Source of the DNA: an uncultured Gammaproteobacteria bacterium
Lineage (GTDB): Bacteria > Patescibacteriota > Microgenomatia > Levybacterales > UBA12049
Assembly (NCBI GenBank): GCA_964503265.1
Contig: CAZCYO010000001.1
Span: 25,119 to 89,118 of the forward strand
Reading direction: 5' to 3'
DNA: 64,000 nt
Translations under genes and position numbers: made by a program
Notes under the pieces: model-generated
Databases searched by the model: none
What the model was told of the DNA's origin: nothing
The model's input: only the letters and a program-made list of their open reading frames with translations
Shown: piece after piece, positions 7,703 to 31,012 of the stretch
Layout: each line of letters begins with the position of its first letter
How positions within the stretch are numbered: the first letter of the stretch is position 1

Positions 7703-7728
7703 ATGTATAGCAAGGTAATATCTTATAG

Positions 7729-7899: not shown

Positions 7900-7908
7900 C
7901 ATTGGACT

Positions 7909-7934: not shown

Positions 7935-7941
7935 ATATAAG

Positions 7942-10584: not shown

Positions 10585-10776
10585 AGAAATTATTGTAGCA
10601 CCTTTAAATAGTAGTAAGCCTCAAGATTCAAGCTATAAAGAATGATGTTTTATTAATGAAGCGTGTGTCTTGTGGGTTCATTTCAGCTGATTCTTAATCA
10701 TTCCTTACGTAACCTTCTTCTTTCTCTTATATCTAGACGATATAGTAAGAAAACTCAAGGAAGGGGGGATGTATAT

Positions 10777-10995: not shown

Positions 10996-11077
10996 ATCAC
11001 AGATGTTCCCAAAACGGATACATACTGAGTATTGTAAGAGTTAGATAAGAAAGTACAAAACATACTCAGTTCTCTTC

Positions 11078-13574: not shown

Positions 13575-13627
13575 CACATATTTTATTCTTTGTTACTTTC
13601 ATAACTGCATACTAAGTTACCTGCCCA

Positions 13628-14932
13628 ATGAATGTATCTGACCTTCGCTTACACATATTTAATACTATCCTCGAACTTTCAACAGAACACGGAATAAACG
13701 CTTCAGGCAAAAATGATGTCTATGGATGTATTTTTGGTAGGGATAGTGCGATTACGATTTTAAAACTTCTTAAGGTAATTGGAAATAAGGAGAATTCTTC
13801 ACTTGAACTATCGAAACTCCAAGATATTTGTCGACGTGGACTGTTAACCCTCGTATCGCTTCAGGGAAAAGAAACAAATGTAGAAAGTGGGGAAGAACCA
13901 GGAAAATTTATTCATGAGTATCGACCGGATAACTATGAAAGATTACTCGTTCTAAAAAAGCCATGGTATATCTACCCAGACGGGGTACTTCGAAATTATG
14001 ATTCACTTGATTCGACTCCGCTTGTACTAATCGCACTGTATAATTACTGGAAATTGACTGGGGATAATGAATTTTTACTCACATGTTTACCAGCTATTGA
14101 AAGTGGACTTAACTGGATGATCACCTATGGAGATCGAGATAAAGATTTTTTACTTGAATATGAACTTTCGCCTGATCGCCAGCATGGGGGGCTAGTCGTT
14201 CAATCATGGACTGATTCAAATGAATCACTCACTCAAGCAGATGGTACGTTTCCACTCTACCCGATAGCACCGGTCGAGGTCCAGGGGTATGCATGGCTCG
14301 CATTTAATCTCTGGGCTGATTTTTATGGCGCTGAGAATACAGTCTCTCACTCAGAGAAATTCGCACATAAACTTCGTTCACAAGCGGTATCACTTAAAAA
14401 ACGATTTAATGAAATTTTTATGTTCCCAGAAGGAACGTATTTTTACCCAGCGCAAGCTCTTGATGGGAATAAAAATAAAATTGAAACAGTTACTGGCAAT
14501 CCACTTCTTTTACTCTGGGCGACATATAAGAAAGATGGAAAGATGGAAACAATTCTTGATGATCAGTATGTAGAGCATCTTGTTAGACGTTCATTTGAAA
14601 CAGATATGTTTGACCACGAGGCCGGAATTCGAACGATGAGTACTGACGCTGCGACGTTCGTCTCTGGTCAAAACTCATATCATAATGGCAGCTTTTGGCC
14701 TGTACTAAACGGTATGGCACATGAGGGACTGATGCATTGGGACTATACGATCGAAGCGAATAAATTAAAAGAAGCGAGCATGAAACCAATTACTTTTTTT
14801 GGAAGTCCTATCGAATTGTATATAACTGATGAAAAAGAACAATACTTGCTGTATAAAAACCCCTTAGGACAAGAAAGCTGCCGCGAGCAAGCATGGTCAG
14901 CCGCCGCCGCCCTCGATTTCCTCACTCTGTAG
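13628..14932 (+). CDS. glycogen-debranching-enzyme-like (GDE_C / six-hairpin) glycoside hydrolase
   Basis: CIFGRDSAIT, EEPGKFIHE, QSWTDS, VQGYAW motifs reminiscent of amylo-alpha-1,6-glucosidase C-domain family. Confidence 0.55.
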   Translation: MNVSDLRLHIFNTILELSTEHGINASGKNDVYGCIFGRDSAITILKLLKVIGNKENSSLELSKLQDICRRGLLTLVSLQGKETNVESGEEPGKFIHEYRPDNYERLLVLKKPWYIYPDGVLRNYDSLDSTPLVLIALYNYWKLTGDNEFLLTCLPAIESGLNWMITYGDRDKDFLLEYELSPDRQHGGLVVQSWTDSNESLTQADGTFPLYPIAPVEVQGYAWLAFNLWADFYGAENTVSHSEKFAHKLRSQAVSLKKRFNEIFMFPEGTYFYPAQALDGNKNKIETVTGNPLLLLWATYKKDGKMETILDDQYVEHLVRRSFETDMFDHEAGIRTMSTDAATFVSGQNSYHNGSFWPVLNGMAHEGLMHWDYTIEANKLKEASMKPITFFGSPIELYITDEKEQYLLYKNPLGQESCREQAWSAAAALDFLTL

Positions 14933-15051
14933 TGTTTAGATACGAATCTTTACTCTACCTGTATTTAACTTGTAATTTTCCTTATTGACAGCTGATTTTT
15001 AGAGATCTACGCTGATAAGGAAGAGCAAAAAAATTGCTCACTAAATATTTA

Positions 15052-15648
15052 ATGAAACACGCAAAAGCTGCCGTTGCTGTTTTTTTTATTACACTAATTT
15101 TTATTAGTTTTTCACCCACGAGAGCTCATGCAAATTTCTTCACTGATGTAGTAGATAAAGTTAAAAGTATTTTTGTAAAAGAAGATAAACCTCAACAAAC
15201 TGATTTGTCGATTGATTCACAAATTGTTCTCGCTCCTGGCGGTGATGTAAATAATAACGGGCAAATAGATTCTGGTGATATCGTACGGTTTATTTATAGT
15301 GTTAAAAATTCTTCAGATAAAACATATGCATTTTCAACTATTAAGACAAACATAAACCGCAACTCACTCAACTTTATTCATAATATTATCGGTGTTTCTG
15401 GACTAGCGGATAATGCTCGAGAAATAACTCTTCCGAATATCAGGTTATATCCTCATCAAGACCGGCTAATTAGTTTCGATGCGAGAGTTAATTATTTTGA
15501 AGATGAAGATCATCAAATCGAAACCACTGCTGTATTAGAAACTGCCGATAAGTCAGTAATTAAAGCTGCAAAAAAAGAAATTACCGCTAAAAAATTGAAG
15601 AAGGGAACAATCAATTCACTGTTTGATCGAAAAAATAGCAATGAATAA
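15052..15648 (+). CDS. secreted protein with a dockerin/EF-hand-like Ca-binding repeat
   Basis: Signal peptide MKHAKAAVAVFFITLIFISFSPTRAHA; DVNNNGQIDSGDIV matches dockerin repeat pattern; track ORF starts at TTG 15034. Confidence 0.4.
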   Translation: MKHAKAAVAVFFITLIFISFSPTRAHANFFTDVVDKVKSIFVKEDKPQQTDLSIDSQIVLAPGGDVNNNGQIDSGDIVRFIYSVKNSSDKTYAFSTIKTNINRNSLNFIHNIIGVSGLADNAREITLPNIRLYPHQDRLISFDARVNYFEDEDHQIETTAVLETADKSVIKAAKKEITAKKLKKGTINSLFDRKNSNE

Positions 15649-18600
15649 AAGAATTAAATTAGTTATAAGCATTGTACTAAATGCAACGTTACTCCTGACT
15701 TCGTATCTTCCTGGGTTCACCCTTTTATTTTCTCCTCAGATTGCAGATGCTGCAAATTCATGTGTTTCATACGGTGGTGGATCTGCTGCTGTTTTAAATG
15801 CCAAGGTTGGTGGTGTTGCCTTAGATCAAGCAGCCACATTTCTAGCTGATATGGATGATATTAAAGGGGCGTATTATGATTCTGTAAAAGATCGAATTGT
15901 TTTTATTGGTAAAGAAAACACATCACTTCCTGAATTTAATAAAGATGATTTAGCAGTAGCAATTAAATCTGTAATCTTTAAAGGAGTGCTTCCGGCTGTA
16001 AGTATCGAGAAATATGAGGGAGATCCTTTTGGTCCTAAACAACGTGCAATTTATTACGGAGGAATTGAGAATACACAATTTGGGAAAACCCTCATGGATG
16101 CAGACATAAAATTAAAAGAATTTGTACATGGATATGATAAAGATGAAAATCCAGTAAGCACATCAGTTTCAGGTTATGAATCACATTTCCAAAGATGGTT
16201 AGATCAAACTCCTGGGTTAACTGAATCTAATGCCAGCAGATGGGTAATAAGACCTAAATTAGTTTCTCTTAAAAGGGATACATCTACCAATTCTTTTGTT
16301 TTTAACGATGTGCAAATGGAAGTATATACGGAGGCGATGTCAGCATCTAATAGCGCAAAGTGGAATACAGCAGCAAGTGATTTTGCTACACATCATTCAT
16401 TACATTTCGATGATTTTGCACAAGAAATTCCAGCTTATGCCGATGCAAAACAGTTAGGAAAAATTGTAGCTGTAATCAAATGGCTTTCTGACAATGGGAT
16501 TCCTTCGGATTTTGCGTGGGCTTCTGATTATGCTCCTACTATTGTCTCAACACCAACTGAAGTAGATACCGTAATAACTCCAGAAATTGATGGATGGCGT
16601 TTATATGGAGGACTTGAGTATTACACGCCAAATACTTATACAACAGATAGTAGTACATCTGCTTCTTTTAAAACAGCTTCTGAGAATATAAATGCACCAA
16701 AGGAAGATATTCATTGGACGTTTACAAAAGATGGCCAAACATATGAATCTGTCGCTGTAGCAGCTGATGCATTTAGAAGTATTGGAGCATATAGTACTAG
16801 TGTTACGGATATGTCATTCCCAATGACCGGGGATTCAAGTCTCTCATTCACAAGATCATATTCTTCTTTCTCTGGAGCACAAAATGGGTGTGGTAGAGGA
16901 TGGTCGTTTATGCCGGCAGCGCTAACTGATAATAATCCTTCAGCTGATGGGGTTATTATTGGGACTTGTCCGAATGATACGTTTAATCATCGATATAAAG
17001 TAGCGTTTAATTCAAACACTGGAATAAGAGAAACATTTACTAACTACTGTGTGAGTAATACTAGTACGTACTTACCAGACGAAAGTGTTTTTCATTCGTC
17101 AATTACTGTTACTTCTACATCCAGCGCGTTAACTGTTTTAAAAGTAAAACAAAAAGATCAAAGTGAATATGAATTTCACGATATTTATTTAGATCCCAAT
17201 CAATATACAAGAACAAATATGCGGCTGGTGGCATATCGTGATAAAAATGGAAACAAAACGAATTACAATTATGATTCATCAAATAAACTAACAAGTATAA
17301 GTGATGATCGTGGACATCAACTAGCGATTACCTATAACGGAAGTAATTTAATTTCTTCTGTTAAGGACTGGACGAATAGAGAGGTTTCCTATGGATATGA
17401 CTCTCAAGGAAATTTAACTTCGGTGACTGATCCCAATGGGGAAACAAAACAGTACGGATATAACGACAATTATAAACTTAGCTCAATTACTGACAGATTA
17501 GGTCACACAATTCTTACTAATACATATAATGATGATGCGCGGTTAGCTACTCAAGTGAATTCAGGAAGTGTATCGGCTACCTTTACGTATGATGACACTC
17601 ATAGAGTTGCAACAACTTCATCCACTCTATCAAGAGTGCAAACAATTAAATATGATGAAAAAGCGAGGATACTAGAACAAATCGACCCACTTAATAATAA
17701 AACTACCTATACTTATGGAACCGAATATGCGCCTTTAACAGTTACAGATAGAAGAAATCATACAACCACAAATACCTATGACTCAAATGGAAATGTAACA
17801 TCTGTAACCGATCCATATAGCAAGACCGTTACTTACACCTATGATGGAAGTAATAGAATTACCCAAATTTCTGATGGTCGATATGGGGCTAGTCCCAAAG
17901 TTTCTAAATTCACTTACGATGGGTCCGGAAATCTGACTCAAGCATCCGAGTCAGGAAGGATTACTAACTTTACCTATGACTCATATGGAGAGATGTTAAC
18001 TAAAACTGATCCATTAACACATGTCATGACTTGGACGCGTGATTCATTTGGAAATAAACTAACAGAAACAAACGATTTGAGTAAAACTACTACGTTTGAA
18101 TACGACACATTAGCAAGGTTAAAGAAATCGACTGATTCAGAAGGAAAGTTCCAAACATTTTCTTATGATTACAATAACAATGTCTTAACGAGTACAAACT
18201 CAGCGGGAATAACGACAAATGAATATACGAAGGAAAATAAACTTAAGAAAGTTACATTACCTGATGGGACAATAACCCAGTTTACATATAACAATGCCGG
18301 GTCATTAAGTAGTGTCCAAGATGCTCTCAATAATACAACTACCTATGGGTATGACCAATATCAGAATATTACTTCTAACTTAAATGCACTTAATAAAACG
18401 ACTTCCTATACTTATGACAAGTTAAATAGAAGAACGGGGTCTACCACTCCACTTAGTAAAGTTACAGCACTTGAATATGATGCAAATGGGAATATCACTA
18501 AAAGAACAGATGCAAATAATAAAGATACGCTTTATCAATACGATAATTTAAATAGGCTTACTCAAATATCATATTCTGACAATAAAATAGTAAATTATAC

Positions 18601-21600
18601 CTATGATGATAGAGGAAATATGACATCGATGAGTGATAGTCTTGGAACAACCTCATACAGTTATGATATTTACAATCGGCTAACGCAGGTAACAGACCCA
18701 AATAGCAAAGTAGTGAGTTATTCCTATGATAATACTGATAATCTAACACAAATTACTTATCCAGGCAGTAAGGTAGTAGCATACGCATATGACAACGCTA
18801 ATCGTATAGAAACAATTACTGATTGGAATAGTCAGCAAACTACTTTTACCTATTTTGATAATGGTCTGATAAAGACTAAAACGCTTCCTAATGGAATAGT
18901 TAGTAGTTACACCTATGATAATGCAAATAGATTAAGTTCTGTTCAGCACACAAAAAGTTCAACTGTACTTGCAAAATTTGACTATGCAAGAAATGCAGTT
19001 GGAGGGATTATAACAGCGACTGAAAGTGGGACATTATTACCAACTACACCTACTTCTTCACCTTCTGCTGTTACTGTGAGTAATTTAGCTACAATGAGTA
19101 GCGTTACAAGTGCTAGTTCATATACGACATCTTCTATCTCACCATCAGCGAATAAATTATTATTACTGACAGTTGCTAGTAGGACAGGAATTACTGCTAA
19201 TCCAAACCAGCCAACCGTAACAGGAAATGGATTAACATGGGTTGCTGTCGATAGCCGAGTATATGATGATACGAGTAGTAGCAGAAGGAGAATAACTCTA
19301 TTTCGAGCAATGGGTACTAGCCCAACAAGTGGGACATTATCAATAGATTTTGGTGGACAGACACAGACAAATTATTCAGCTGTTGTTGATCAAGTAAGTG
19401 GTATGGATACATCTGGGACTAATGGATCAGGAGCTATCGTTCAATCTGCTAATAATTATGACAGTAGTAGTTCTTCATCTACATTATCTGTAACATTAGC
19501 AGCTTTTGGAAATACAAATAATGCAACATATGGAACATTTGCCAATGGAGATGGAGTTGCAGATCCGACTGCTGGTTCAGGATTCACCCAATATGGAGAA
19601 GTAACTGATTCAAATAATGCAATTAAAGTTTTATCAGAATTTAAGAGTACTAATGATACAAGTGTAGATATTGATTGGAATGATCCTTCGGAATTAGGGG
19701 GAATTGCTGTAGAAATAAAAGCGGGTAGTACAAGTAGTTACGAAACTGTCTCCGCATCTAATCTGATATCAGGAAGTACAACAAATGTGAATAGTTCCTC
19801 TACTGCATCTATTTCGCCAAGTGCAAATAAACTTGAGTTGTTAACTGTATCAAGCAGAACTGATATTTCTGCTAATCCAAATCAGCCAACTGTAACAGGA
19901 AATGGACTAACATGGGTTGCGGTAAACAGTATTGTTTATGATACTACTAGCACTAGTCGAAGAAGAGTTACCTTATTTAGAGCGATGGGTGCAAGCCCTA
20001 CATCTGGTGCACTTTCCATAGATTTTAGTGGACAAACGCAAACTGATATAACTTGGTCAGTGGATGAGTTATCTGGTGTCGATACAACAGGGACTAGTGG
20101 CTCAGGTGCAATTGTTCAATCTGCAACGAATAAAGATGAGACAGGATCCGCAACATCATTAGCAATTACCTTGTCTTCATTTGGAAATACAGCAAATGCT
20201 ACGTATGCCGGGATTGGTAAAGATGGAAATACTTCGGCTACAGCTGGTTCAGGTTTTACTATTTCTTCAGATGTTGCATCTTCGACAAATGTAGGTACTA
20301 GCACTCAATGGAAAAACACTAATGATACCTCAGTAGATATTTCATATGCTAGTTCTGTTTTAGTTGGAGGAATTGCTGTAGAAATTAAGGCGGGTACTTC
20401 ATCATCAGTATATCCGAATATCTCTTTATCGAATAAGACAACTGGATCTAACTCGTCTGGAGTTAATTCAGCAAATACATCATCTATTTCACCGTCTGCG
20501 AATAAATTACAGTTGTTAACTGTCGCTAGTAGAACGGCTATTACTGCAAATCCAAATCAACCTACAGTTTCAGGCAATGGATTAACATGGACTGCAGTAA
20601 ACAGCGTAGTATATGATGACTCAAGTAGCAGTAGAAGGAGAATCAGTGTATTTCGTGCGTTAGGAGCCAGTCCATCTTCAGGAGCAATTACAATAAGTTT
20701 TGGTGGGCAAACACAAACAGATATAGACTGGTCTTTAGATGAAGCAAGTAATGTTGATACAAGTGGAAGTAATGGATCCGGGGCAATAGTTCAATCAGCG
20801 ACAAATTATGATGCCAGTGGAACAGCATCTACTCTATCAGTTTCATTAAGTAGCTTCGGAAGTAATAGTAATGCAACATTTGGTGCTTTTGCAAATGGAT
20901 ATGGATTAGCAAATCCGACTGTAGGGTCAGGGTTTACAAAATATGGGGAACTCGCTGATTCAAATAATAATATAAAAGTTCTTACTGAATTTAAAAATAG
21001 TAATGATACTAGTATTGATATAAATTGGAATGATAATTCGGAACTCGGTGGTATAGCGATAGAATTAAAAGCTGCAGGAGTTCAATCAAATACTACTCAG
21101 TTCACATATGATTCAGTTCATAGATTACTGACAACGACATTTCCAGCTAATTCATTTGTGTACACATATGACGCGGTAGGAAATAGATTAACGAATACTA
21201 AAGATGGAGTACAGACTACAGCAACATTTAACGATGATAATAAGCTAACGCAATTTGGTTCTACGAGTTACTCGTATGATAACAATGGAAATAGGACTGC
21301 AGCTGGAAGTAAGACAATCGCATATAATTTAGAAAATAAGGTTGCTACTCAATCTGCGAGTGGGGATCCAACGATAGAGTTTACATATGATGGAAATGGG
21401 AAGAGGTTAGGGCAGAAAGTAAATGGGACACAGACTAGAAGATATATTAATGACATCTCAGGAAGTCTAGAAAAAGTACTTATCACACAAGATCTCCAAA
21501 ATAGCACAGATAACTACTACCTCTATGGAAACGGCCTGGTTAGTGAAGGAGGAGTAAGTTCAGGTAATCGTAATTATTATCTCGAGGATGGATTAGGCAA

Positions 21601-22246
21601 CATACGAGCTATTACAGATAGCAGCGGAAACTCACTCGATACCATGACATATGATCCCTATGGAAATCTCCTCACCGGATCAAGCTCAGCAGAATTTAAA
21701 TTCAAAGGAGAACAACTAAACACCGATACAAGCCTCTACTACATGCGTGCCAGATACTATGATCCAACCACAGGAACATTCACCTCAAAAGACCCGCACG
21801 AAGGAGATCTAAATAATCCAAACTCACAGAATGGCTATGACTATGCAAATGGTGATCCTATTAATCTGAATGATCCATCTGGAGAGCTAGTATTTGCAGA
21901 TGATGCAATTTTTATTGGAGCAGCAGCGTGTGCAGGAGTGTATGTTTATGCTACTAATCCAGCTGTTAAATCTGCTGTAAATACAACTGTCAGCACGACA
22001 ATTAATCAAATTATAGGAGGTATAAATACTTTACTTGATGAATCTAGAAATCCAAAACAAGATACAAAGTTGAGTGAAGGTGAGATAAAGAAACTACAAA
22101 ACGGTGGTCAAGATATTCATGATATTAAAGGCGGTGATAGTGGCAAGGATCTTTTTAAAGATCCAAAGACGGGCGAAATTTATATTAAGCCTAAAAACGG
22201 TGCAGGACCAGGTGACGAAACAGGGTTAAATATCAATGATTTTTAA
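15623..22246 (+). CDS. giant RHS/YD-repeat polymorphic toxin protein with Sec signal peptide
   Basis: Signal peptide; dozens of YD repeats (YTYD..GN.T..TD); RHS core YYMRARYYDPTTGTFTSKDP then DPSGEL; ~115-aa variable C-terminus; alternative ATG at 15641 (MNKRIKL...). Confidence 0.85.
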   Translation: MIEKIAMNKRIKLVISIVLNATLLLTSYLPGFTLLFSPQIADAANSCVSYGGGSAAVLNAKVGGVALDQAATFLADMDDIKGAYYDSVKDRIVFIGKENTSLPEFNKDDLAVAIKSVIFKGVLPAVSIEKYEGDPFGPKQRAIYYGGIENTQFGKTLMDADIKLKEFVHGYDKDENPVSTSVSGYESHFQRWLDQTPGLTESNASRWVIRPKLVSLKRDTSTNSFVFNDVQMEVYTEAMSASNSAKWNTAASDFATHHSLHFDDFAQEIPAYADAKQLGKIVAVIKWLSDNGIPSDFAWASDYAPTIVSTPTEVDTVITPEIDGWRLYGGLEYYTPNTYTTDSSTSASFKTASENINAPKEDIHWTFTKDGQTYESVAVAADAFRSIGAYSTSVTDMSFPMTGDSSLSFTRSYSSFSGAQNGCGRGWSFMPAALTDNNPSADGVIIGTCPNDTFNHRYKVAFNSNTGIRETFTNYCVSNTSTYLPDESVFHSSITVTSTSSALTVLKVKQKDQSEYEFHDIYLDPNQYTRTNMRLVAYRDKNGNKTNYNYDSSNKLTSISDDRGHQLAITYNGSNLISSVKDWTNREVSYGYDSQGNLTSVTDPNGETKQYGYNDNYKLSSITDRLGHTILTNTYNDDARLATQVNSGSVSATFTYDDTHRVATTSSTLSRVQTIKYDEKARILEQIDPLNNKTTYTYGTEYAPLTVTDRRNHTTTNTYDSNGNVTSVTDPYSKTVTYTYDGSNRITQISDGRYGASPKVSKFTYDGSGNLTQASESGRITNFTYDSYGEMLTKTDPLTHVMTWTRDSFGNKLTETNDLSKTTTFEYDTLARLKKSTDSEGKFQTFSYDYNNNVLTSTNSAGITTNEYTKENKLKKVTLPDGTITQFTYNNAGSLSSVQDALNNTTTYGYDQYQNITSNLNALNKTTSYTYDKLNRRTGSTTPLSKVTALEYDANGNITKRTDANNKDTLYQYDNLNRLTQISYSDNKIVNYTYDDRGNMTSMSDSLGTTSYSYDIYNRLTQVTDPNSKVVSYSYDNTDNLTQITYPGSKVVAYAYDNANRIETITDWNSQQTTFTYFDNGLIKTKTLPNGIVSSYTYDNANRLSSVQHTKSSTVLAKFDYARNAVGGIITATESGTLLPTTPTSSPSAVTVSNLATMSSVTSASSYTTSSISPSANKLLLLTVASRTGITANPNQPTVTGNGLTWVAVDSRVYDDTSSSRRRITLFRAMGTSPTSGTLSIDFGGQTQTNYSAVVDQVSGMDTSGTNGSGAIVQSANNYDSSSSSSTLSVTLAAFGNTNNATYGTFANGDGVADPTAGSGFTQYGEVTDSNNAIKVLSEFKSTNDTSVDIDWNDPSELGGIAVEIKAGSTSSYETVSASNLISGSTTNVNSSSTASISPSANKLELLTVSSRTDISANPNQPTVTGNGLTWVAVNSIVYDTTSTSRRRVTLFRAMGASPTSGALSIDFSGQTQTDITWSVDELSGVDTTGTSGSGAIVQSATNKDETGSATSLAITLSSFGNTANATYAGIGKDGNTSATAGSGFTISSDVASSTNVGTSTQWKNTNDTSVDISYASSVLVGGIAVEIKAGTSSSVYPNISLSNKTTGSNSSGVNSANTSSISPSANKLQLLTVASRTAITANPNQPTVSGNGLTWTAVNSVVYDDSSSSRRRISVFRALGASPSSGAITISFGGQTQTDIDWSLDEASNVDTSGSNGSGAIVQSATNYDASGTASTLSVSLSSFGSNSNATFGAFANGYGLANPTVGSGFTKYGELADSNNNIKVLTEFKNSNDTSIDINWNDNSELGGIAIELKAAGVQSNTTQFTYDSVHRLLTTTFPANSFVYTYDAVGNRLTNTKDGVQTTATFNDDNKLTQFGSTSYSYDNNGNRTAAGSKTIAYNLENKVATQSASGDPTIEFTYDGNGKRLGQKVNGTQTRRYINDISGSLEKVLITQDLQNSTDNYYLYGNGLVSEGGVSSGNRNYYLEDGLGNIRAITDSSGNSLDTMTYDPYGNLLTGSSSAEFKFKGEQLNTDTSLYYMRARYYDPTTGTFTSKDPHEGDLNNPNSQNGYDYANGDPINLNDPSGELVFADDAIFIGAAACAGVYVYATNPAVKSAVNTTVSTTINQIIGGINTLLDESRNPKQDTKLSEGEIKKLQNGGQDIHDIKGGDSGKDLFKDPKTGEIYIKPKNGAGPGDETGLNINDF
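19135..21075 (+). repeat. three tandem ~670-nt (~224-aa) intragenic repeats inside the RHS gene
   Basis: SISPSANKL.LLTV.SRT.I.ANPNQPTV.GNGLTW.AV.S.VYD..S.SRRR...FRA.G.SP.SG...I.F.GQTQT ... GGIA.E.KA recurs at ~19135, ~19808, ~20482. Confidence 0.7.
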
Positions 22247-22993
22247 TTGCGTGATATAATGCTTCATATGTTCAACGATCCTGGGCTAAAAAACGAGAGT
22301 ACTGCGTGGCTTAATATTATTGGATTTGATATGAATCCAGATGAAATAACTAAAGAAGTCGGCGTTAATCCAACAAAAACTAGAATAAAAGGTGAATACC
22401 GAACTGTCGGTACAAAAACGCCGAGAAAAATTATTAATAAGGAGAATCAATGGATTTTAGAGTCAAGTTTATCTCGTAAGTTACCATTAGAAAAGCATTT
22501 GGAGCATCTGCTTGATAAAATAAAATTCCATAAAGACAGCTTTAAATATCTTACAAAAAGCTGCACTGTTGAGCTGAATAGTGCTTTATATTACTACGAA
22601 GCCAATCCAGGGCTTTCTTTTGAAACTGAACTTCTTAAGGAAATAGCAGATTTTGATATTTCATTAAATCTTGATATATACTGTCTAGCTGGAACAGTTC
22701 TTGAGCTAGAACAACCGAAAGTTGTTAGGCATTTAAAAAAACATTTGTCTGAAGTAAAGTTTCTTTTGAATGGTACTAAAGAAAATGAAGTAAATTATAT
22801 TTTAGAAAGTTTGAAGGGTATAGAAGAATCCGCCTATGCTATTCAGAGTGATTATATGCACGATTTGATTTGGACTGAAAAGCTCGAAGATGAAAGGTAC
22901 GAAGAAACTCTATTAAAAATAGCTAAGGAAATAAATAACATTAATAACTATGTAAAGAAATCTAAATATTTATCTTCATTAGTGAATAAATGA
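22247..22993 (+). CDS. candidate immunity protein, DUF4279-like N-domain
   Basis: Starts immediately after RHS stop (TTG; ATG at 22259/22268); ...PDEITK..G..PTK...KGE...G.......W.L.S... pattern recalled from DUF4279; family assignment unverified. Confidence 0.4.
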   Translation: MRDIMLHMFNDPGLKNESTAWLNIIGFDMNPDEITKEVGVNPTKTRIKGEYRTVGTKTPRKIINKENQWILESSLSRKLPLEKHLEHLLDKIKFHKDSFKYLTKSCTVELNSALYYYEANPGLSFETELLKEIADFDISLNLDIYCLAGTVLELEQPKVVRHLKKHLSEVKFLLNGTKENEVNYILESLKGIEESAYAIQSDYMHDLIWTEKLEDERYEETLLKIAKEINNINNYVKKSKYLSSLVNK

Positions 22994-23108
22994 GTGATTT
23001 AGTATTTAATATTTTTATTAGTTTATTTGGACTATTTTTTGCTATACAGTTTAAAAAAATGGAGAAAGAGATTCTTAAACCAATAGGTTTATAGTATAAT
23101 CAAAAAAA

Positions 23109-23594
23109 ATGAGTCGTTTAAAAATTGGCGATATTTTCGAAATCCCATTATCTAATAACAAAAAAGCATATGGACAGTATATTTATTTAGATTTTTTTGG
23201 ACCTTTAATACGGGTATTTAATCTCATAGTAGATGTAAATAAGCAGGTGGACATAGATGTTATTACCTCTTGCAAATTACTTTTCCCCCCAGTTTATACA
23301 GGTGTTAAAGCTGCAATCAAAAATGGCATGTGGAGCGTGATAGGGAACAAAGAAATACATGAATTTGTATTTCCGGGGTTTGTAAGAACATTTCAAGACT
23401 TAAATACAGGTGATGCAACAATTTGGTTTTTATGGGATGGGAAAAACAACGTACGAATTGGTAAAAAACTTTCTGATGATATGAAAAAATTTGAGTTTCT
23501 TGCGATATATTCTCCCGATTTAATTGAAAAAAGGATTATTAGCAAGGAAAAACCATATCAAGATTTAATTCTTACAAATAAATTAGCAAATTAG
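23109..23594 (+). CDS. hypothetical protein, candidate immunity/orphan immunity gene
   Basis: 161 aa, KIGDIFEIPL..NKKAYGQYI N-terminus similar in style to predicted immunity families; context only. Confidence 0.3.
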   Translation: MSRLKIGDIFEIPLSNNKKAYGQYIYLDFFGPLIRVFNLIVDVNKQVDIDVITSCKLLFPPVYTGVKAAIKNGMWSVIGNKEIHEFVFPGFVRTFQDLNTGDATIWFLWDGKNNVRIGKKLSDDMKKFEFLAIYSPDLIEKRIISKEKPYQDLILTNKLAN

Positions 23595-23595
23595 A

Positions 23596-23928
23596 ATGAT
23601 ACTCTCTCTACCTGCACGAATACGACAAGAATCAATAAAAAAACTTGTTGAAGTAGCAACCTTAATGGAATCAAATAAAATTAATTTGATAGAAGGTAGT
23701 AGACATATTAATAGATTACGTCATTATACAGAAGATGCTAATGATGATCTTTTTACTATTTTTATTTTAGTGAACTCAGACACAGATGATATACCACTTA
23801 ACGAAACCAGAAAAAACTTTAGTAAAGCACTTTTAGAAGAAAAAGATAAAAAAATGGTTGATTACTTAGCTAATATGAAACCTACTATTTTGCAAGGTTG
23901 TAAAGAAATTATAAAAAAGTTCTCCTAA
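23596..23928 (+). CDS. hypothetical small helical protein
   Basis: 110 aa, starts 2 nt after previous stop. Confidence 0.3.
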   Translation: MILSLPARIRQESIKKLVEVATLMESNKINLIEGSRHINRLRHYTEDANDDLFTIFILVNSDTDDIPLNETRKNFSKALLEEKDKKMVDYLANMKPTILQGCKEIIKKFS

Positions 23929-23987
23929 AATAATATAGCGATTTGAAACCGTCTCTAAAATTAACCTCTGCTATAATACCATCCATT

Positions 23988-24512
23988 ATGAAAATTAGTT
24001 TTATTACAAAGTTATCTGTTGAAAACTGTATTAAAAAAATTAGTGATAACGCTGAGAGAAATACGTTTATGGCGAGCTTTTCTCGTTTATGGGATTACGA
24101 AAAGACATTTTTTTATCGTATAAAGGGGAATACTTTTCGACTAGAAAAAGTTAATTATTATAGAAACTCATTCAAACCAGTCTTTTATGGAAAATTAATT
24201 AAAGAAAATAATGGAACGAGGATAGAAGGTTATTTTGGAATTCATCAAGCTGTTAAACTGTTCATGATATTTTGGTTTCTAGGGGTAACAATTTTGAGCC
24301 TTATCCCCGCACTTAATGCGATTGATGATCTTTTTATTCCTTCAAAAATAGTTCCCGGCCATCTTACTGCAAATCCGCTTTTGGCATTGTCTATACCGTT
24401 TATATTTATTGGATTTGGAATATTAATAATTTTTATCGGAAAATATTTTGGGGAAAAAGATGAAAATGAAATAGTCGAATTTATTAAATCTAAGCTAGAA
24501 GTAATTTCTTAA
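23988..24512 (+). CDS. hypothetical membrane protein (2 C-terminal TM)
   Basis: ATG 23988 preceded by tataat; track ORF begins at TTG 23943. Confidence 0.3.
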   Translation: MKISFITKLSVENCIKKISDNAERNTFMASFSRLWDYEKTFFYRIKGNTFRLEKVNYYRNSFKPVFYGKLIKENNGTRIEGYFGIHQAVKLFMIFWFLGVTILSLIPALNAIDDLFIPSKIVPGHLTANPLLALSIPFIFIGFGILIIFIGKYFGEKDENEIVEFIKSKLEVIS

Positions 24513-25207
24513 TATACTTGAATATTTTTTGAATCTGTTACATTAACCGTGTTACTGCACTTATCTTCCTCTCCTGTCACTATCACACTTTTCCCTTCAT
24601 ACAAATTCGGAGAAAATGAGCTATTTATCGGGAGATGGAGGACTGAGCCATTTTGCTTAATTAATACTACTCTTTGTGTGTCTTTATTCTGGACTTGCTT
24701 TCCCTGAAGTATCGTTAGCATGTCTGTCAGGATAGATACTACTGGAATTCTTTTCGCAGTATCTACTGCTGTTAAAATCCGGAGGGTTCCAACCTCTGAT
24801 TGTATACCTTTCGAACATAATGCATGTGTTCCGCCAAAGAATCCAAATGTTCCAATCACTAAGACAATTCCCGCGAGTCCTAAAGATCCTTTCAATGTAA
24901 AACTAAAGGCTTTTTGTTTTTTAATTTCTTCAAGCAGTGCTGAAATTTTACGCAGAGGATTGCCGACATGGACATCAAGAAGATCGTCATTTGTTACTTT
25001 GTGATCGACTCCTATGCCATGGGGGAGAAGGGCATCTAGTACTGGATACTTTTGGCTAGTAGTTATGGGTGATTGGTTGTTTGGCAGAAAGGATGGATCT
25101 GTGTGATCAACGTGAACAAAATGGCCGTGTGCATCATGAGGATGCTTGGGGCCAGATAGTGTTCTACCATCAATATCTTCTGATAATTTAGCAGATGACT
25201 CATCCAT
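24509..25207 (-). CDS. His-rich single-TM protein, unknown function
   Basis: HPHDAHGHFVHVDH N-terminal His cluster, central TM, beta-rich C-domain. Confidence 0.35.
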   Translation of the reverse strand: MDESSAKLSEDIDGRTLSGPKHPHDAHGHFVHVDHTDPSFLPNNQSPITTSQKYPVLDALLPHGIGVDHKVTNDDLLDVHVGNPLRKISALLEEIKKQKAFSFTLKGSLGLAGIVLVIGTFGFFGGTHALCSKGIQSEVGTLRILTAVDTAKRIPVVSILTDMLTILQGKQVQNKDTQRVVLIKQNGSVLHLPINSSFSPNLYEGKSVIVTGEEDKCSNTVNVTDSKNIQVY

Positions 25208-25263
25208 ATAAAAAGCGTAAAACTTTTTTGTTCAATTTGCAAGAACAACACTTTAGTTGCCTG

Positions 25264-25290
25264 GATCCCAGATCAAGTCTGGGATGACAT
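25264..25290. repeat. hairpin repeat of GTCATTCCCG family (variant, reverse orientation)
   Basis: ggatcccagatcaagtctgggatgacat = reverse complement of a variant of gtcattcccgacttgatcgggaatc at 47861. Confidence 0.6.
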
Positions 25291-25292
25291 CA

Positions 25293-25457
25293 ATATGGGG
25301 GATATGGTCAAAGTATGGGCCAGATATGGCTAGGCTTAAAGTACCATAGTTATGGTGATATGGTGGCGATATGGTTATTTGGGCGTCAAATCAAGCTAAT
25401 TATGGTGTCGATATAATTTCTAACTTGTCACCACAAATTGATATGGTGGAAATATGG
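25293..25457. promoter_or_regulatory. array of ~10 (A/T)TATGG(T/C) direct repeats, many spaced ~11 bp
   Basis: atatgg at 25293,25302,25324,25358,25369,25441,25452 plus gtatgg 25313 and tatgg 25351,25401; lies upstream of 24509..25207 and 3' of the OmpR-type RR gene. Confidence 0.5.
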
Positions 25458-25554
25458 CTTGAATAGGTGATTAGTTATTTGTTACTAGTGATTAGACAAA
25501 AAGGAAAATCATATAGATTCTCCCGGTGTACACTGAGGGGAATGACATAGTGGA

Positions 25555-26226
25555 TTACTCTCTAATAACGTAGCCGAAGCCTCGGACGGAGTGGAGGAGT
25601 TTCTTTTCGTGGCCTTCATCTACTTTTTTTCGTAAGTATCCCATATAGACATCGACAACTCTGGTTTCAACTTCGCTTGAATAAAGCCAAATTCTATTTA
25701 AGATCATTTCACGAGTCAAAATTCTTCCTTTATTACTCATAAGATACTGGAGTAATTTAAATTCTTGGGGAGTGAGTTGGATTTGTTTACCGTTTCGTAT
25801 GACTTCGAGTGTTTTCGCATCGAGAGTTAAGTCGTTTATCGTTAACTTCGTGTCGCCGTTTCCTGTTGAGCGAAGTCTGGCTTTAATTCTAGCTAAAAAT
25901 TCATCTGCCACAAATGGTTTTGTAATGTAATCATCTGCTCCTAAATTAAGTCCTTGGACAATATCACTGACACTGTCTTTGGCGGTTAGAATAATGATTG
26001 GAAGTTCTGGGTATTTTTTGCGAACTTCAGTACAGACTGCTTCTCCAGACATATTCGGAAGTCCGAGATCAAGTACCATCACATCGGGTTCCATTTTTCC
26101 AAGTTGATCAAGTGCTTCAATGCCATCTCCAGCTAATTGGACATTATAGGCATTATCAAGGAGGAGTTCTTTTAAATATTTTTGGAGACCTTTGTCATCT
26201 TCTACCACCAGAATTGTGTACGTCAT
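25555..26226 (-). CDS. OmpR/PhoB-family response regulator
   Basis: REC domain (VEDD...D, DVMVLDLGLP, ILTAKD) + winged-helix (LTPQEFKLLQYL...RVVDVYMGYLRKK). Confidence 0.88.
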   Translation of the reverse strand: MTYTILVVEDDKGLQKYLKELLLDNAYNVQLAGDGIEALDQLGKMEPDVMVLDLGLPNMSGEAVCTEVRKKYPELPIIILTAKDSVSDIVQGLNLGADDYITKPFVADEFLARIKARLRSTGNGDTKLTINDLTLDAKTLEVIRNGKQIQLTPQEFKLLQYLMSNKGRILTREMILNRIWLYSSEVETRVVDVYMGYLRKKVDEGHEKKLLHSVRGFGYVIRE

Positions 26227-26664
26227 ATAATATTCAGTATTATAGCAACAATTCTACGCTTGAACAAACACTTTTACCTCATCTATTACAGTTTTCATAC
26301 ATATGGATAAATATTCGTTATGAGTTGTTGGTATATTCTTACGCATCTATGATCCAAATCTTACTGTTGACTTGACTTAGTACTCACTTTTGTTATACTT
26401 CCTTCACTCCTTTGCTATCACACTGGAGTAACTGATGAGTATCCTGCCAACCATCATATCTCCTGTTTTCACCTTTACCCACTTATGTATTTGTGTGCCG
26501 AGAATTCTTTTTCAGAGTGTTAACGAAACGATATCTCAATTCAGAATAAAGGATGTGATATATAATGATTGAAGAGTTCATACGAAAAATAATTGCGATA
26601 TTCGGCAGTCGACCTCAGCCCGCATATGTAACGGTCGAGGAGTAAGAACGGTACTGAGCGCGTA

Positions 26665-27042
26665 ATGTATAATGTCGATATGAATGGAAAAATATTAGTT
26701 GCAGAAGACGATAGTGCAATAGTAGAGGTAATGAAAATTATTCTTGAAGATGCCAAATATACTGTTTTTACGGCAGATAATAGTCGCGATATTCATTCAC
26801 TTATCAAAAACGAAGATCCACAGCTTTTACTACTCGATATCTGGTTATCTGGTGAAAATGGTGGGGAAATTGCAAAAAGTATTAGAACAGATGAGAAAAC
26901 AGCATCACTTCCAATTGTCATGATTTCGGCAAATAACGAAACAGAACGAATCGCTAAAGAAGTAGGAGCAGCGGGATTTTTACAAAAGCCATTTACCATT
27001 GATGATTTACTTTCGATGGTTAAACAGCACATTCGTGCTTAA
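26665..27042 (+). CDS. single-domain CheY-like response regulator
   Basis: KILVAEDD, LLLLDIWLSG, MISANNE, FLQKPF; no output domain; probable start at MNGKIL (26683). Confidence 0.8.
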   Translation: MYNVDMNGKILVAEDDSAIVEVMKIILEDAKYTVFTADNSRDIHSLIKNEDPQLLLLDIWLSGENGGEIAKSIRTDEKTASLPIVMISANNETERIAKEVGAAGFLQKPFTIDDLLSMVKQHIRA

Positions 27043-27353
27043 TGGTAACAGATTATTTCATTTTCCTTACATCCTTTACGCATTTCTCTTATATAGGTAC
27101 GCTACCATACGTATATGGAAATAATAATGATCGTATGCATGGGAGTTGCAGCGTATGTTTGTGCAAGTATAATACAGATCTCCTAATAATCATGAAAAAA
27201 AAAGAAAAAAGATTCGTATATGAAGATGTCATTTCAGATATAGGTGGAAAGAAGGTTTCATTTCGTGATGTACTTACCAAACGACTTAAAATAGAAACAT
27301 ATTTTTCAGCAGGTGAAGTAATATTTGTAGAATCCTCTCAAGCTTCTAATTAA
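27042..27353 (+). CDS. hypothetical protein
   Basis: 103-aa ORF; weak, possible later start at MKKKEKRF (27190). Confidence 0.25.
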   Translation: MVTDYFIFLTSFTHFSYIGTLPYVYGNNNDRMHGSCSVCLCKYNTDLLIIMKKKEKRFVYEDVISDIGGKKVSFRDVLTKRLKIETYFSAGEVIFVESSQASN

Positions 27354-27369
27354 CTGGTATTATTAGATA

Positions 27370-27942
27370 ATGTCTAAAAAAAATATTAGTTTAGTCCTTT
27401 CTATTATTCTTGCCGTTATTTATTATGCAACTTCGACTTCTTCACATCCGGAAATTCTCGGAACAAAAAATGTCGTTATTGCCCCACCTATTTCTGTCAC
27501 TCAAACTCAGGTTGTGATTGGACAGTATGCTGTCACGAAAGTAGTCGATGGAGATACGATTAAAGTTACTCGTGAGAATGAAATGAAAACAGTTCGCTTG
27601 ATTGGTGTCGATACTCCAGAAACAGTTGATCCACGAAAAACTGTTCAATGCTTTGGTAAAGAAGCATCTGATTTTACGAAGTCACTTCTTGACGGACAGA
27701 CTGTAACACTTCAATCAGATAACACACAGCAGGTAACAGATAAATACGGACGGATGCTGGCATATGTATATCTATCAGATGGTACGCTCGTTAATGAAAA
27801 AATAATTCGCTCGGGATATGGATATGAATATACCTATAACGTGCCTTATATTCACCAAAAAGAATTTAAAGAAGCACAGCGTCTAGCAGAGTTAGAAGGA
27901 AACGGGTTATGGAGTGCTAGTACATGCCAAGGAAAACGCTAA
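27370..27942 (+). CDS. secreted/membrane-anchored thermonuclease (SNase family)
   Basis: N-terminal TM; VVDGDTIKV..VRLIGVDTPE ... RMLAYVY core motifs of staphylococcal-nuclease fold. Confidence 0.85.
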   Translation: MSKKNISLVLSIILAVIYYATSTSSHPEILGTKNVVIAPPISVTQTQVVIGQYAVTKVVDGDTIKVTRENEMKTVRLIGVDTPETVDPRKTVQCFGKEASDFTKSLLDGQTVTLQSDNTQQVTDKYGRMLAYVYLSDGTLVNEKIIRSGYGYEYTYNVPYIHQKEFKEAQRLAELEGNGLWSASTCQGKR

Positions 27943-28496
27943 GGAGTATTACTTTTATTTTTTAATAAAGTAATATCGTTTTTCAGTGTTTCAAGGTCAT
28001 TCACAATTGCTTGAAGATGTTTATCAATTTGATTTACATCAATACTATCTGACTCTATTTCTTCTTCTTGGATTTTATCCATGTCTTCAGAAATATCTTC
28101 AACTTCTTCTCCTAAATCCTCAACGTCTTCTTGAATTCTATCAATATCTCCCTCAACTCCAGCAACGTCTTCTTGGATCTCTTCGATGTCTTCGCCTACG
28201 TCCTCCAGACTCTCTGTGTTGCGATTTACGGTCATTTGGATAAAAAGAGAGAGGTAGATCGCTTCAAGTGAGACAAGTGTCGTTAGAACGAGAAGAATCG
28301 TGTTAATTTCAATCCCTAAAAAATAGAGGGCGAACGCACCAATAAAGATCACTGTATGGACAATGATTGATGTGGGAGTTCCCATAAATTCTGTTAGTTT
28401 TATCGATACATGCTCTACTGGACCGATATTTGGGGTGGTGTCCATTCGTGGTTTGGTCATACACATATTATAGGTGCGTAAGCCATGCGTGCGCAA
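27939..28496 (-). CDS. membrane protein with highly acidic coiled-coil C-tail (DUF1003-like)
   Basis: Two TM then EDVGEDIEEIQEDVAGVEGDIDRIQEDVEDLGEEVEDISEDMDKIQ. Confidence 0.35.
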   Translation of the reverse strand: MRTHGLRTYNMCMTKPRMDTTPNIGPVEHVSIKLTEFMGTPTSIIVHTVIFIGAFALYFLGIEINTILLVLTTLVSLEAIYLSLFIQMTVNRNTESLEDVGEDIEEIQEDVAGVEGDIDRIQEDVEDLGEEVEDISEDMDKIQEEEIESDSIDVNQIDKHLQAIVNDLETLKNDITLLKNKSNTP

Positions 28497-28566
28497 CCCC
28501 TAAAAAACTCAACAATATTCCTCCTTTTTGCACTACTATTTTATAGTATGTTACAGTCCAAAAGGC

Positions 28567-28595
28567 TTGACAGCTAGCAAATCCTATGATAGAGT
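28567..28595 (+). promoter_or_regulatory. possible sigma70-like promoter of lon
   Basis: TTGACA(28567)-17 nt-TAGAGT(28590); would leave a very short leader with no SD. Confidence 0.25.
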
Positions 28596-28609
28596 GCTAA
28601 TACATTTTT

Positions 28610-31012
28610 ATGGAACGAGTAGTGCCCATTATTCCCATCCGAGATGGAATCATTTTCCCCAATACCGACTCAGTCTTAACCTTTGGTCGTCCTAAGAGTT
28701 TAGCAGCGCTTGAGTCTTCATTCGCACAACAAGACAGAATTGTGTGTTTTGTGTTGCAGAAAAATGCGCGCTTAAATGATCCAACCACGGCTGACTTATA
28801 TTCGATTGGAACTCTTTCGAAAATTGAACGAATGATTCGAGCTGATGGAGAAATTAATGCGCAAGTTCGTGGTATTTCACGTGTTCGAATTTTATCATTT
28901 GAGCAACATGACGAATTTCTTATGGCACGAGTCGTCGATCTTCCTGAAGAGGCTGATAACACCCCAGAACTTGAAGCATTATGTAATCATTTAACAAATG
29001 AATTCCGTCGAGCGATGAATTTCGGAAAATCTGCAGACTTTTTAGTCTTTATGAATATCATGTCCGAGAATTCTCCTTCAGAGTTGTCAGATCTGATCGC
29101 ATCAGCACTGGATCTCAAGCCACAAGAACGCCAGGAACTACTCGAGATGGTAAATGTAAAAGAGCGTCTCCAAAAACTGGCTGATTTACTTGCTAAAGAG
29201 ATTAAAGTCTTGGAGCTTGAGCGACGAATTGCATCAAAAACTCAGGAGCGATTTGAAAAAGGAGCACGAGAAGCGATGCTCAGGGAGCGCCTTAAGACGA
29301 TTGAAAAAGAACTGGGTGAGGAAGATGGTAATGAAATAAAAGAGCTTTTAACGAAAATCAAAGAAGCGAAAATGCCTGAGGATGTTGAGGAAAAAGCAAA
29401 AAAAGAAGTCAAGAAACTTCAGAACATGAACCAATTCAATCCTGAAGCTGGCTATATTCGAAATTATATCGATTGGTTAGTCGGTCTTCCGTGGAGTACT
29501 GAAAGTAAAAGCGATGTCGATATTACAGCAGCAGAAAAAATACTTGATGAAGATCATTATGGACTTTCAAAAGCAAAAGAGAGAATCGTTGAGTATCTTG
29601 CAGTTCAGAAATTAGCGGGAAAGATTAAAGGGCCGATTCTCTGTTTCGTCGGACCTCCAGGTGTCGGAAAGACATCTATCGGACGATCCATTGCACGTGC
29701 GTTAAATCGAGAATTCATCCGTGTATCACTGGGTGGAATTCGTGACGAAGCTGAAATTCGTGGACATCGACGAACGTATGTCGGCGCACTTCCTGGACGA
29801 ATTATTCAAGGAATTAAAGATGCAGGAACAAAAAATCCAGTCTTTATGTTAGACGAAATCGATAAAGTTGGCTCTGATTATCGTGGTGATCCATCAAGTG
29901 CTCTTCTTGAAGCACTTGATCCAGAACAAAACGGTGAGTTCTCAGATCACTACCTAGAAGTTCCATTTGATCTTTCAAATGTATTATTTGTCACGACTGC
30001 AAATGTTCTGGATACTATTCCACCAGCACTTCGTGATAGACTCGAAATTATTAATTTCGCAGGCTATACCCATGACGAGAAATTTAAGATTGCGAAAGAA
30101 TATCTTCTTACCAAACAGCTTGAAGCAAACGGTCTCGATGTAAAAAAAGTTACGATGGATGATGACGCACTCAGTTTTATTATCCAATACTATACTCGTG
30201 AAGCGGGAGTTCGAAATCTTGAACGTCGAATTGCGACAGTCTTTAGAAAAGTTGCGAAAACTGTAGCAGAAGGCAGAAAAGGGAAAATTAAAATCACTGA
30301 AAAAGATATTCCAGGCTTCCTAGGTCCTCGAAAATATAGTTCGAGTATGATGGAGAAAAAAGATGAAATTGGTATGACGACCGGACTGGCATGGACAGAA
30401 GCTGGGGGAGATATTCTTTTCATCGAAGTAGCACTTATGGCAGGAAGAGGGAATTTAATTTTAACGGGTCAACTAGGTGATGTCATGAAAGAATCATGCC
30501 AAGCAGCGATGTCATATATTCGCGCTCGCGCAGTATCACTGGGGATTCCTGAGAAATTCTATTCGAAAATTGATGTACATGTTCACGTCCCAGAAGGTGC
30601 CGTTCCAAAAGATGGTCCATCAGCAGGACTTGCGATCACAACTGCAATCGTCTCAGCTCTTACGAAAATCCCAGTGAAACGAACAGTCGCGATGACAGGG
30701 GAAATAACCCTTCGAGGTCGAGCGCTTGAAATTGGTGGAGTGAAAGAGAAAGTTATCGCAGCTCATAGAGCAGGGCTAAAGACAATTATTTTACCAAAAG
30801 ATAATAAAAAAGATTTAGAAGATGTGCCGGCCGAAGTTCTTAAAGATGTGGAATTTAAATTCGTAACGCATTTAGATGAAGTACTCGAAATCGCTCTTAC
30901 GAAACCACTTAAAGTAAAAGCAAAATCACCAAAAGTACTTGATGAGAAAGATGAAGATGAAAAAGCTCCACGAACAACAGTTCGAACGAATCAACCTCAG
31001 AAGGTAGACTGA
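28610..31012 (+). CDS. lon: ATP-dependent Lon protease
   Basis: LON N-domain (IPIRDGIIFP), AAA+ Walker A GPPGVGKTS, protease PKDGPSAGLAITTA Ser-Lys dyad. Confidence 0.93.
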   Translation: MERVVPIIPIRDGIIFPNTDSVLTFGRPKSLAALESSFAQQDRIVCFVLQKNARLNDPTTADLYSIGTLSKIERMIRADGEINAQVRGISRVRILSFEQHDEFLMARVVDLPEEADNTPELEALCNHLTNEFRRAMNFGKSADFLVFMNIMSENSPSELSDLIASALDLKPQERQELLEMVNVKERLQKLADLLAKEIKVLELERRIASKTQERFEKGAREAMLRERLKTIEKELGEEDGNEIKELLTKIKEAKMPEDVEEKAKKEVKKLQNMNQFNPEAGYIRNYIDWLVGLPWSTESKSDVDITAAEKILDEDHYGLSKAKERIVEYLAVQKLAGKIKGPILCFVGPPGVGKTSIGRSIARALNREFIRVSLGGIRDEAEIRGHRRTYVGALPGRIIQGIKDAGTKNPVFMLDEIDKVGSDYRGDPSSALLEALDPEQNGEFSDHYLEVPFDLSNVLFVTTANVLDTIPPALRDRLEIINFAGYTHDEKFKIAKEYLLTKQLEANGLDVKKVTMDDDALSFIIQYYTREAGVRNLERRIATVFRKVAKTVAEGRKGKIKITEKDIPGFLGPRKYSSSMMEKKDEIGMTTGLAWTEAGGDILFIEVALMAGRGNLILTGQLGDVMKESCQAAMSYIRARAVSLGIPEKFYSKIDVHVHVPEGAVPKDGPSAGLAITTAIVSALTKIPVKRTVAMTGEITLRGRALEIGGVKEKVIAAHRAGLKTIILPKDNKKDLEDVPAEVLKDVEFKFVTHLDEVLEIALTKPLKVKAKSPKVLDEKDEDEKAPRTTVRTNQPQKVD

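Follow-up and report, generated by a model that had tools for sequence, protein, structure and literature searches.

The original definition of Ntox33 describes an alpha+beta domain that has two motifs, [DN]xHxxK and DxxxD, and occupies the C-terminal position in secreted polymorphic toxins with Sec-type export, there called 'T2SS' (Zhang et al. 2012, Biol Direct 7:18; PMC3482391). In that survey it had no known immunity protein and no association with RHS proteins. An RHS-borne copy was described in 2026 in Salmonella, where the genes of a PAAR-RhsA-Ntox33 effector and of a DUF4279 protein form a bicistron in SPI-19 (PMC13304343). The S8-PTS/ABP toxins of Gram-positive bacteria have the same domain, together with Sec export and the ferredoxin-like class of immunity proteins (PMC9424270, PMC13460014). 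Here we analyze the C-terminal tail of an RHS toxin encoded in a stretch of 64,000 nucleotides (the window) from an uncultured bacterium (assembly GCA_964503265.1, contig CAZCYO010000001.1, positions 25,119 to 89,118). As judged from sequence comparisons, the tail is almost beyond doubt a member of the Ntox33 family, and the gene immediately downstream is very probably its DUF4279 immunity gene, so that the two would form a toxin-immunity pair.

The locus in the window is the same kind of system as the Salmonella SPI-19 RHS-Ntox33/DUF4279 pair, but with a different delivery. Both have an RHS shell, a C-terminal Ntox33 domain and a DUF4279 gene directly downstream as predicted immunity gene. 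Whereas the Salmonella protein is a 1369-aa effector of a type VI secretion system (T6SS) with a PAAR domain, the window protein has 2201 aa, a Sec signal and no PAAR. The window locus differs further by three extra 225-aa repeats, a conserved upstream open reading frame (ORF) of ~200 aa and a longer (244-aa) DUF4279 protein with an extension. Compared with Ntox33 as described in 2012, the window copy is RHS-borne and DUF4279-paired; otherwise there is no essential difference. The S8-PTS/ABP toxins rely on a BetaH domain for receptor binding and on a subtilase (S8) peptidase for processing, while the window protein has an RHS cage and its own predicted aspartyl autoprotease.

With respect to architecture, the window protein also resembles WapA from Bacillus subtilis. 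The latter is a Sec-dependent RHS toxin with a variable C-terminal toxin and a downstream immunity gene, which functions with neither a T6SS nor a type VII secretion system (T7SS). The two proteins have in common the signal peptide, the RHS repeats, the C-terminal toxin and the downstream immunity gene; they differ in their tips, which in WapA are tRNases.

Identity, limits and predicted fold of the tail

The tail alone matches the Pfam profile PF15533 (Ntox33, 'Bacterial toxin 33') with E = 5e-14 and 53 bits, the gathering cut-off of this profile being 28.4 bits. The match extends over the entire profile (positions 1-65 of 65) and corresponds to tail residues 54-116; in a comparison with the whole RHS protein the profile scores 46.2 bits. 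Both motifs of the original definition are present, the first as D-I-H-D-I-K (tail 75-80, nt 22112..22129) and the second as D-L-F-K-D (tail 87-91, nt 22148..22162). In an alignment of 90 family sequences the columns of the first motif contain D in 88%, H in 81% (E in 19%) and K in 99% of the members, those of the second motif D in 97% and D in 89%. In the same alignment, L61, E65, I66, L69, K80, D87, L88, K90, K100, P101, K102, G104, G106 and G108 are near-invariant, and no exchange at all is seen at G95 and N114. All of these columns are retained in the window protein, which keeps D75, H77 and D91 as well.

Among 1.84 billion cluster representatives (clusters at 50% identity), a profile search returned 683 with this domain at E <= 1e-3, 388 of them at E <= 1e-10. 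The domain is located at the C-terminus, or within a few residues of it, in nearly all of these relatives; other family members that are RHS C-termini include P0082, P0151, P0087, P0133 and P0122. The match to a curated profile and the many cluster representatives that share the domain show that the tail is no chance sequence. In the NCBIfam and PADLOC libraries nothing matched the tail. This protein itself already carries the PF15533 tag in a public protein collection, and relatives are labeled 'polymorphic toxin type 33' in RefSeq. The discovery value is therefore small, since any Pfam-based annotation labels this protein already.

These results modify a previous sequence-only reading of the window, which had recognized none of the known toxin signatures in the tail and considered it a candidate for a new effector fold. 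The tail indeed contains no HNH, EndoU, deaminase or ART signature, but the PF15533 match is a confident assignment to a catalogued toxin family, an outcome that the earlier reading itself had named as contradicting its proposal. The family is hence a known one; what stands of the second proposal is that no solved structure significantly matches the predicted fold. This unknown fold of Ntox33 has already been recognized since 2012-2022.

RHS repeats and an Rhs-associated core directly precede the tail, which agrees with the earlier view that the toxin tip is located after an RHS autoproteolysis motif. Residues 2010-2087 match the core profile (Rhs_assc_core) with 70.5 bits at model positions 1-75 of 76; the match ends at DPSG. 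The C-terminal end of the core reads ...NGDPINLNDPSGEL, with the motif DPSGEL at nt 21872..21889. At the junction of core and tail, the translation passes from ...YDYANGDPINLNDPSGEL to VFADDAIFIGAAACAGVYVYATNP..., and it terminates with GLNINDF in front of the stop codon at 22244..22246. The tail comprises 118 aa (21890..22243) and has GTA (Val) as first codon. The earlier reading had given its limits as 21885-22246; the peptide quoted there is present exactly, but 21885 falls inside a Glu codon and the start has to be moved to 21890. DPSGE occurs likewise in the orthologous RHS proteins of two metagenome-assembled genomes (MAGs), L004 and L006, where the motif takes the forms DPSGES and DPSGEQ.

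In an AlphaFold model of the Ntox33 core only, the predicted local distance difference test (pLDDT) is 91.7 and the predicted template modeling score 0.77. An AlphaFold2 model of the full tail, computed with family alignments, has pLDDT values of 92-97 in the core. The modeled topology is alpha-alpha-beta-beta-beta: in the core model, a helix at 14-22 and a short helix at 27-30, which carries the DxHxxK motif, are followed by three strands and a short C-terminal turn. This small alpha+beta fold agrees with the published descriptions of Ntox33. The sequence-only reading had proposed a check with AlphaFold and Foldseek; in a Foldseek comparison of the model with 350,542 chains of the PDB, the best E was 0.92 and no relative was significant. 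When PDB sequences were searched with the tail by itself or with the profile of the family, only chance matches turned up (E of at least 0.28). Faint structural resemblances were found to RNA- or ribosome-binding modules, not to nucleases. Ntox33 is a widespread domain without a solved or recognizably related structure, and the July 2026 review has the table entry 'Ntox33 / Novel fold / Unknown' (PMC13460014).

Two known types of RNase were compared with the tail and rejected. For barnase/BECR RNases the hhalign probability was 0.9%, with no profile or structural similarity; the earlier judgment that the barnase likeness is loose and unconvincing was correct. [quoted passage not shown] Both types are like the tail in their small size, the order of helices before strands and the conserved His, Lys and acidic residues, and they may work alike; they differ in that the tail is a member of neither and has no detected profile or structural similarity to them.

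The DUF4279 gene and its conserved pairing with Ntox33

The sequence-only reading had taken the ORF 22247..22993 as the immunity gene of the tail, and this assignment gains from the findings on DUF4279 in the window, in nine other loci and in the literature. The product matches PF14106 with E = 4.3e-19 and 69.4 bits (cut-off 25) over aa 22-136. Its ~110-aa C-terminal extension matches no Pfam family. Judged by P0166 (244 aa) and P0005 (241 aa), two proteins of the database, the likely start is the ATG at 22259 or 22268, so that the reading frame opens 13-22 nt past the toxin stop codon. No contig with P0005 emerged from an exact look-up of this protein. The protein has neither a signal peptide nor a transmembrane segment (max hydropathy 1.16).

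DUF4279 is encoded directly downstream of Ntox33 in all nine other loci examined, that is in 10/10 when the window is counted (Table 1). These loci span at least five phyla, with Patescibacteria, Verrucomicrobium, Chitinophaga, Pseudomonas and Deinococcus as named taxa. A genome search with a 5-sequence alignment returned 3 loci only, from a collection that does not include the genome to which the window belongs. In the window and its closest relatives the DUF4279 homologues are 241-249 aa long and carry the ~110-aa extension; single-domain forms of ~139 aa are found in Verrucomicrobium (L008 4202-4621), Chitinophaga (L009 4399-4818), Pseudomonas and Deinococcus. DUF4279 has been renamed FdL-Imm5, a ferredoxin-like immunity family, and the ferredoxin-like families as a group couple with several toxin classes, Ntox33 among them (Li et al. 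2022, PMC9424270). The consistency of the pairing makes this an easy system to test.

Table 1. Location of the features discussed in the text. Coordinates refer to the window; for other loci the locus or accession is given.
Feature	Location	Strand	Basis or remark
ORF of ~200 aa upstream of RHS gene	15034..15648	+	8-nt overlap with RHS start
RHS/YD-repeat polymorphic toxin gene	15641..22246	+	ATG 15641, 2201 aa; RHS and YD profile matches
Three tandem ~225-aa repeats inside RHS protein	19073..21097	+	direct self-comparison
Rhs-associated core with predicted aspartyl autoproteolysis motif	21650..21889	+	TIGR03696
Pre-toxin linker, tail aa 1-52	21890..22045	+	hydrophobic segment and predicted long helix
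Ntox33 toxin domain, tail aa 53-118	22046..22243	+	Pfam PF15533; extreme C-terminus
Predicted cognate immunity gene, DUF4279 domain	22259..22993	+	Pfam PF14106; within ORF 22247..22993
Imm26-family orphan immunity gene	23109..23594	+	Pfam PF15428, E = 1.4e-13
Orphan 88-aa Ntox33 cassette and DUF4279	L001-L003		metagenome contigs
Orthologous RHS loci and DUF4279	L004, L006		MAGs
Ntox33 and DUF4279	L008; L009		Verrucomicrobium MAG; Chitinophaga genome
Ntox33 and DUF4279	L010, JAVHPF010000095.1		Patescibacteria MAG, read with genetic code 25
Ntox33 and DUF4279	L012, L013		Pseudomonas amygdali plasmid, Deinococcus plasmid; RefSeq annotation

Three of the loci in Table 1 deserve a separate description. 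The Patescibacteria locus has in-frame TGA codons exactly at conserved Gly positions of the Ntox33 domain (L010 4001-4189); translation under code 25 (UGA = Gly) runs through the toxin and also through the downstream DUF4279 ORF. The database proteins P0004, P0101 and P0112 have Trp at conserved Gly positions of Ntox33, which we read as mistranslation of sequences from code-25 organisms. In Pseudomonas amygdali (NZ_CP123205.1, L012 2962-3602) a stand-alone 75-aa Ntox33 protein without a delivery domain is encoded next to DUF4279. The pair is located on a mobilizable plasmid, where it is enclosed by IS5 transposases and the toxin-antitoxin genes RelE/Phd; it represents an orphan cassette or else an addiction module similar to toxin-antitoxin systems. 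In Deinococcus sp. NW-56 (NZ_CP026517.1, L013 2647-5041) a 185-aa Ntox33 protein and DUF4279 are followed by a gene with a C39 cysteine peptidase domain and a gene for an outer-membrane beta-barrel. This layout suggests a bacteriocin-like export route for the Ntox33 domain.

Mode of action of the Ntox33 tail

On balance we favor the view that the tail is the cargo of a Sec-exported RHS toxin, that its Ntox33 domain acts on RNA in the cytoplasm and that the DUF4279 protein provides immunity. By analogy with other RHS systems, the RHS shell would enclose the tail, and the aspartyl autoprotease of the Rhs core would cut at DPSGE(L). When the exported toxin meets a competitor, the tail would be released into the cytoplasm of that cell. 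There the small alpha+beta domain would act on nucleic acid, most probably RNA, with the conserved Asp, His (or Glu), Lys and Asp-x-x-Lys-Asp as the residues used. The producer would protect itself by a cytoplasmic DUF4279 protein, which binds and blocks the Ntox33 domain.

The individual parts of this view differ in their strength. A cytoplasmic target is likely, because the immunity protein is soluble and lacks both a signal peptide and a transmembrane segment. For this target RNA is the best guess, in view of how Ntox33 was classified in 2012, of the conserved D/H/K/D set and of the faint likeness to modules that bind RNA; an RNase activity specifically is, in our estimate, possible rather than probable.

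Several observations weigh against an RNA-directed enzyme that is delivered in this way. A measured activity for any Ntox33 protein was not found in the searchable literature, and the function of the domain was stated to be unknown in a 2022 analysis (PMC9424270) and still in the July 2026 review (PMC13460014). Furthermore, the His of the first motif (tail 77, nt 22118..22120) is replaced by Glu in 17/90 aligned members (19%). Both closest RHS orthologues belong to this group, with DVEGLK in L004 and DIEGLK in L006, and they keep the same type of DUF4279 immunity protein. A strictly His-dependent RNase mechanism can therefore not be general. Either of the two residues must serve, for example as general acid/base or as ligand, or the position is not catalytic. 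The core of the domain has an isoelectric point of 5.7 and is not basic, which is unusual for a nucleic-acid binder. With respect to delivery, the motif is DPSGE-L and not the canonical DPxGL; a Glu occupies the place of the canonical Leu, and the exact cut site is consequently uncertain, after E or after L. Finally, autoproteolysis, encapsulation and delivery are all transferred from other RHS proteins by analogy.

Among the alternatives, a cytoplasmic enzyme with a target other than RNA survives best, although we consider it improbable. In this case the domain would act on DNA, on a nucleotide cofactor or on a protein that it modifies chemically, and the glycine-rich K-P-K-x-G-x-G-P-G loop would bind phosphate. 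The nearly invariant G-x-G-x-G loop is in line with this proposal, and the conserved acidic residues E65, D75, D87 and D91 could bind metal as in a DNase. The Salmonella paper loosely groups Ntox33 with 'predicted nuclease' effectors (PMC13304343), and an activity that is listed as unknown (PMC9424270, PMC13460014) leaves room for such a target.

The exchange of His for Glu leads to a second alternative, namely that Ntox33 is not catalytic but a small binding domain, which poisons an essential machine, for example by acting stoichiometrically on the ribosome or on a translation factor. The free replacement of a supposed catalytic residue, even in close orthologues, the tiny size of the domain and the fact that its weak structural likeness points to modules binding RNA or ribosomes, not to nucleases, all fit this idea. 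Nevertheless, the strongly conserved constellation of charged residues resembles an active site, an H-K-D triad was proposed in the 2022 paper (PMC9424270), and general reasoning on polymorphic toxins favors catalysis, as only one RHS cargo arrives per delivery event. A non-catalytic poison is thus distinctly unlikely.

The enzymatic reading assigns toxicity to the Ntox33 core; the linker in front of it requires a separate explanation. It contains a hydrophobic, transmembrane-like segment, AIFIGAAACAGVYVYA, at 21905..21952 with a hydropathy of 1.65-1.73. In the AlphaFold model a helix is present at tail 24-51 (pLDDT ~76-85), and residues 1-20 have low confidence. A hydrophobic 17-mer (Kyte-Doolittle hydropathy of at least 1.6) within 90 aa upstream of the core was found in 67/140 family representatives, several RHS proteins included; this count may contain some signal peptides in short proteins. 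The segment recurs, for example, in the representatives P0122, P0045, P0133, P0109 and P0071, and in long RHS proteins it precedes the core by 35-63 residues. A hydrophobic pre-toxin segment is not described in the cited Ntox33 literature. This recurrence would also be expected if the segment itself were the toxic principle, which damages the target membrane with Ntox33 as an accessory. We regard this as very improbable: the conserved part that defines the profile is the soluble core and not the segment, stand-alone Ntox33 genes of 75-88 aa lack the segment and keep the DUF4279 partner, and the immunity protein is soluble and has no transmembrane segment. A helper in translocation or entry is the simpler explanation. 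The segment is possibly such an aid, and as a recurrent element it might represent a self-contained membrane-entry device for Sec-exported RHS toxins.

That sequence methods missed a known RNase fold, either barnase/BECR or a HicA-like dsRBD, is hardly credible: the GGD..F...G stretch has a superficial likeness to GGDIFSNREG of barnase and the order of a helix and then three strands resembles HicA, but the hhalign and Foldseek tests against both disfavor it.

In a more far-reaching reading, Ntox33 could represent a mechanistically new class of cytoplasm-acting toxins of ~65 aa, with a fold unrelated to solved nucleases, a key His/Glu position and possibly an origin from, or convergence on, an RNA-binding module of the pre-PUA/PUA-like type. 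We consider this rather unlikely. If it is true, the RHS-borne copy in the window, with its intact motifs and its paired DUF4279 gene, would be a convenient model for activity and structure. In any case, knowledge of the substrate or binding partner of Ntox33 would close a gap that has stood for 14 years in the catalogue of polymorphic toxins.

The RHS protein and its surroundings

In the mechanical ORF list, the toxin gene appears as 15623..22246 (+) with 2207 codons and opens at TTG 15623. The true start is almost certainly the ATG at 15641, as judged from the resulting 2201-aa product, which is identical to the database protein P0019. In an exact look-up, P0019 was traced to a 34.6-kb Logan contig from SRR12487046. 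The N-terminus, MNKRIKLVISIVLNATLLLTSYL..., is a Sec-type signal peptide with a max hydropathy of 1.83. The protein matches RHS_repeat of Pfam in 15 stretches (E = 6.5e-81) and YD_repeat_2x of NCBIfam (TIGR01643; E = 1.3e-57); there is also a weak Pfam match to DUF6531. A Pfam scan of the protein found no PAAR, VgrG, LXG or WXG domain, and a cell-wall-binding domain was not detected in it. A Pfam scan of flanking ORFs (5504..15648 and 22247..31012) revealed no match to a T6SS or T7SS family; the products of these ORFs include MutS, MutL, a histidine kinase, a GDE_C/MGH1-like glycoside hydrolase, response regulators, SNase and Lon. The protein consequently differs from T6SS Rhs effectors (PAAR-Rhs), as it has a Sec-type signal peptide instead of PAAR and no T6SS family among the flanking ORFs in these two stretches. 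The window also encodes the glycosylation genes PMT_2 and YfhO.

The tandem repeats begin at aa 1171, 1396 and 1621 of the RHS protein and are 45-67% identical in ungapped pairwise comparisons, and they contain 'SISPSANKL.LLTV.SRT.I.ANPNQPTV.GNGLTW...GGIAVEIKA'. Tandem Repeats Finder missed these 675-nt repeats because their period exceeds the limit of the program. A Pfam scan of one repeat unit gave no match, and the region does not align to the RHS orthologues encoded in L004 and L006. The repeat block may be a receptor-binding or surface-display module.

The ORF that overlaps the start of the RHS gene encodes a product with a hydrophobic N-terminal stretch, for which Pfam gave only a weak match to Dockerin_1 (E = 0.007). 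An ORF of the same size occupies the same position in orthologous loci (L004 3219-3812, 197 aa; L006 2749-3333, 194 aa; L011 2412-3008, 198 aa). Its product may be an accessory protein.

Downstream of the DUF4279 gene, the window contains an Imm26 gene, the cognate toxin of which is not present in the locus. Imm26 is found in polyimmunity loci and is paired with Tox-URI1 (Zhang et al. 2012, PMC3482391). The region 23109..24512 looks like a polyimmunity tail, as is typical for toxin loci of this kind (PMC3482391). After the Imm26 gene it contains, on the + strand, an ORF of 110 aa with a weak DUF2489 match and an ORF of 189 aa with a strong transmembrane segment. The GC content is 0.25-0.32 across ~22800-24400.

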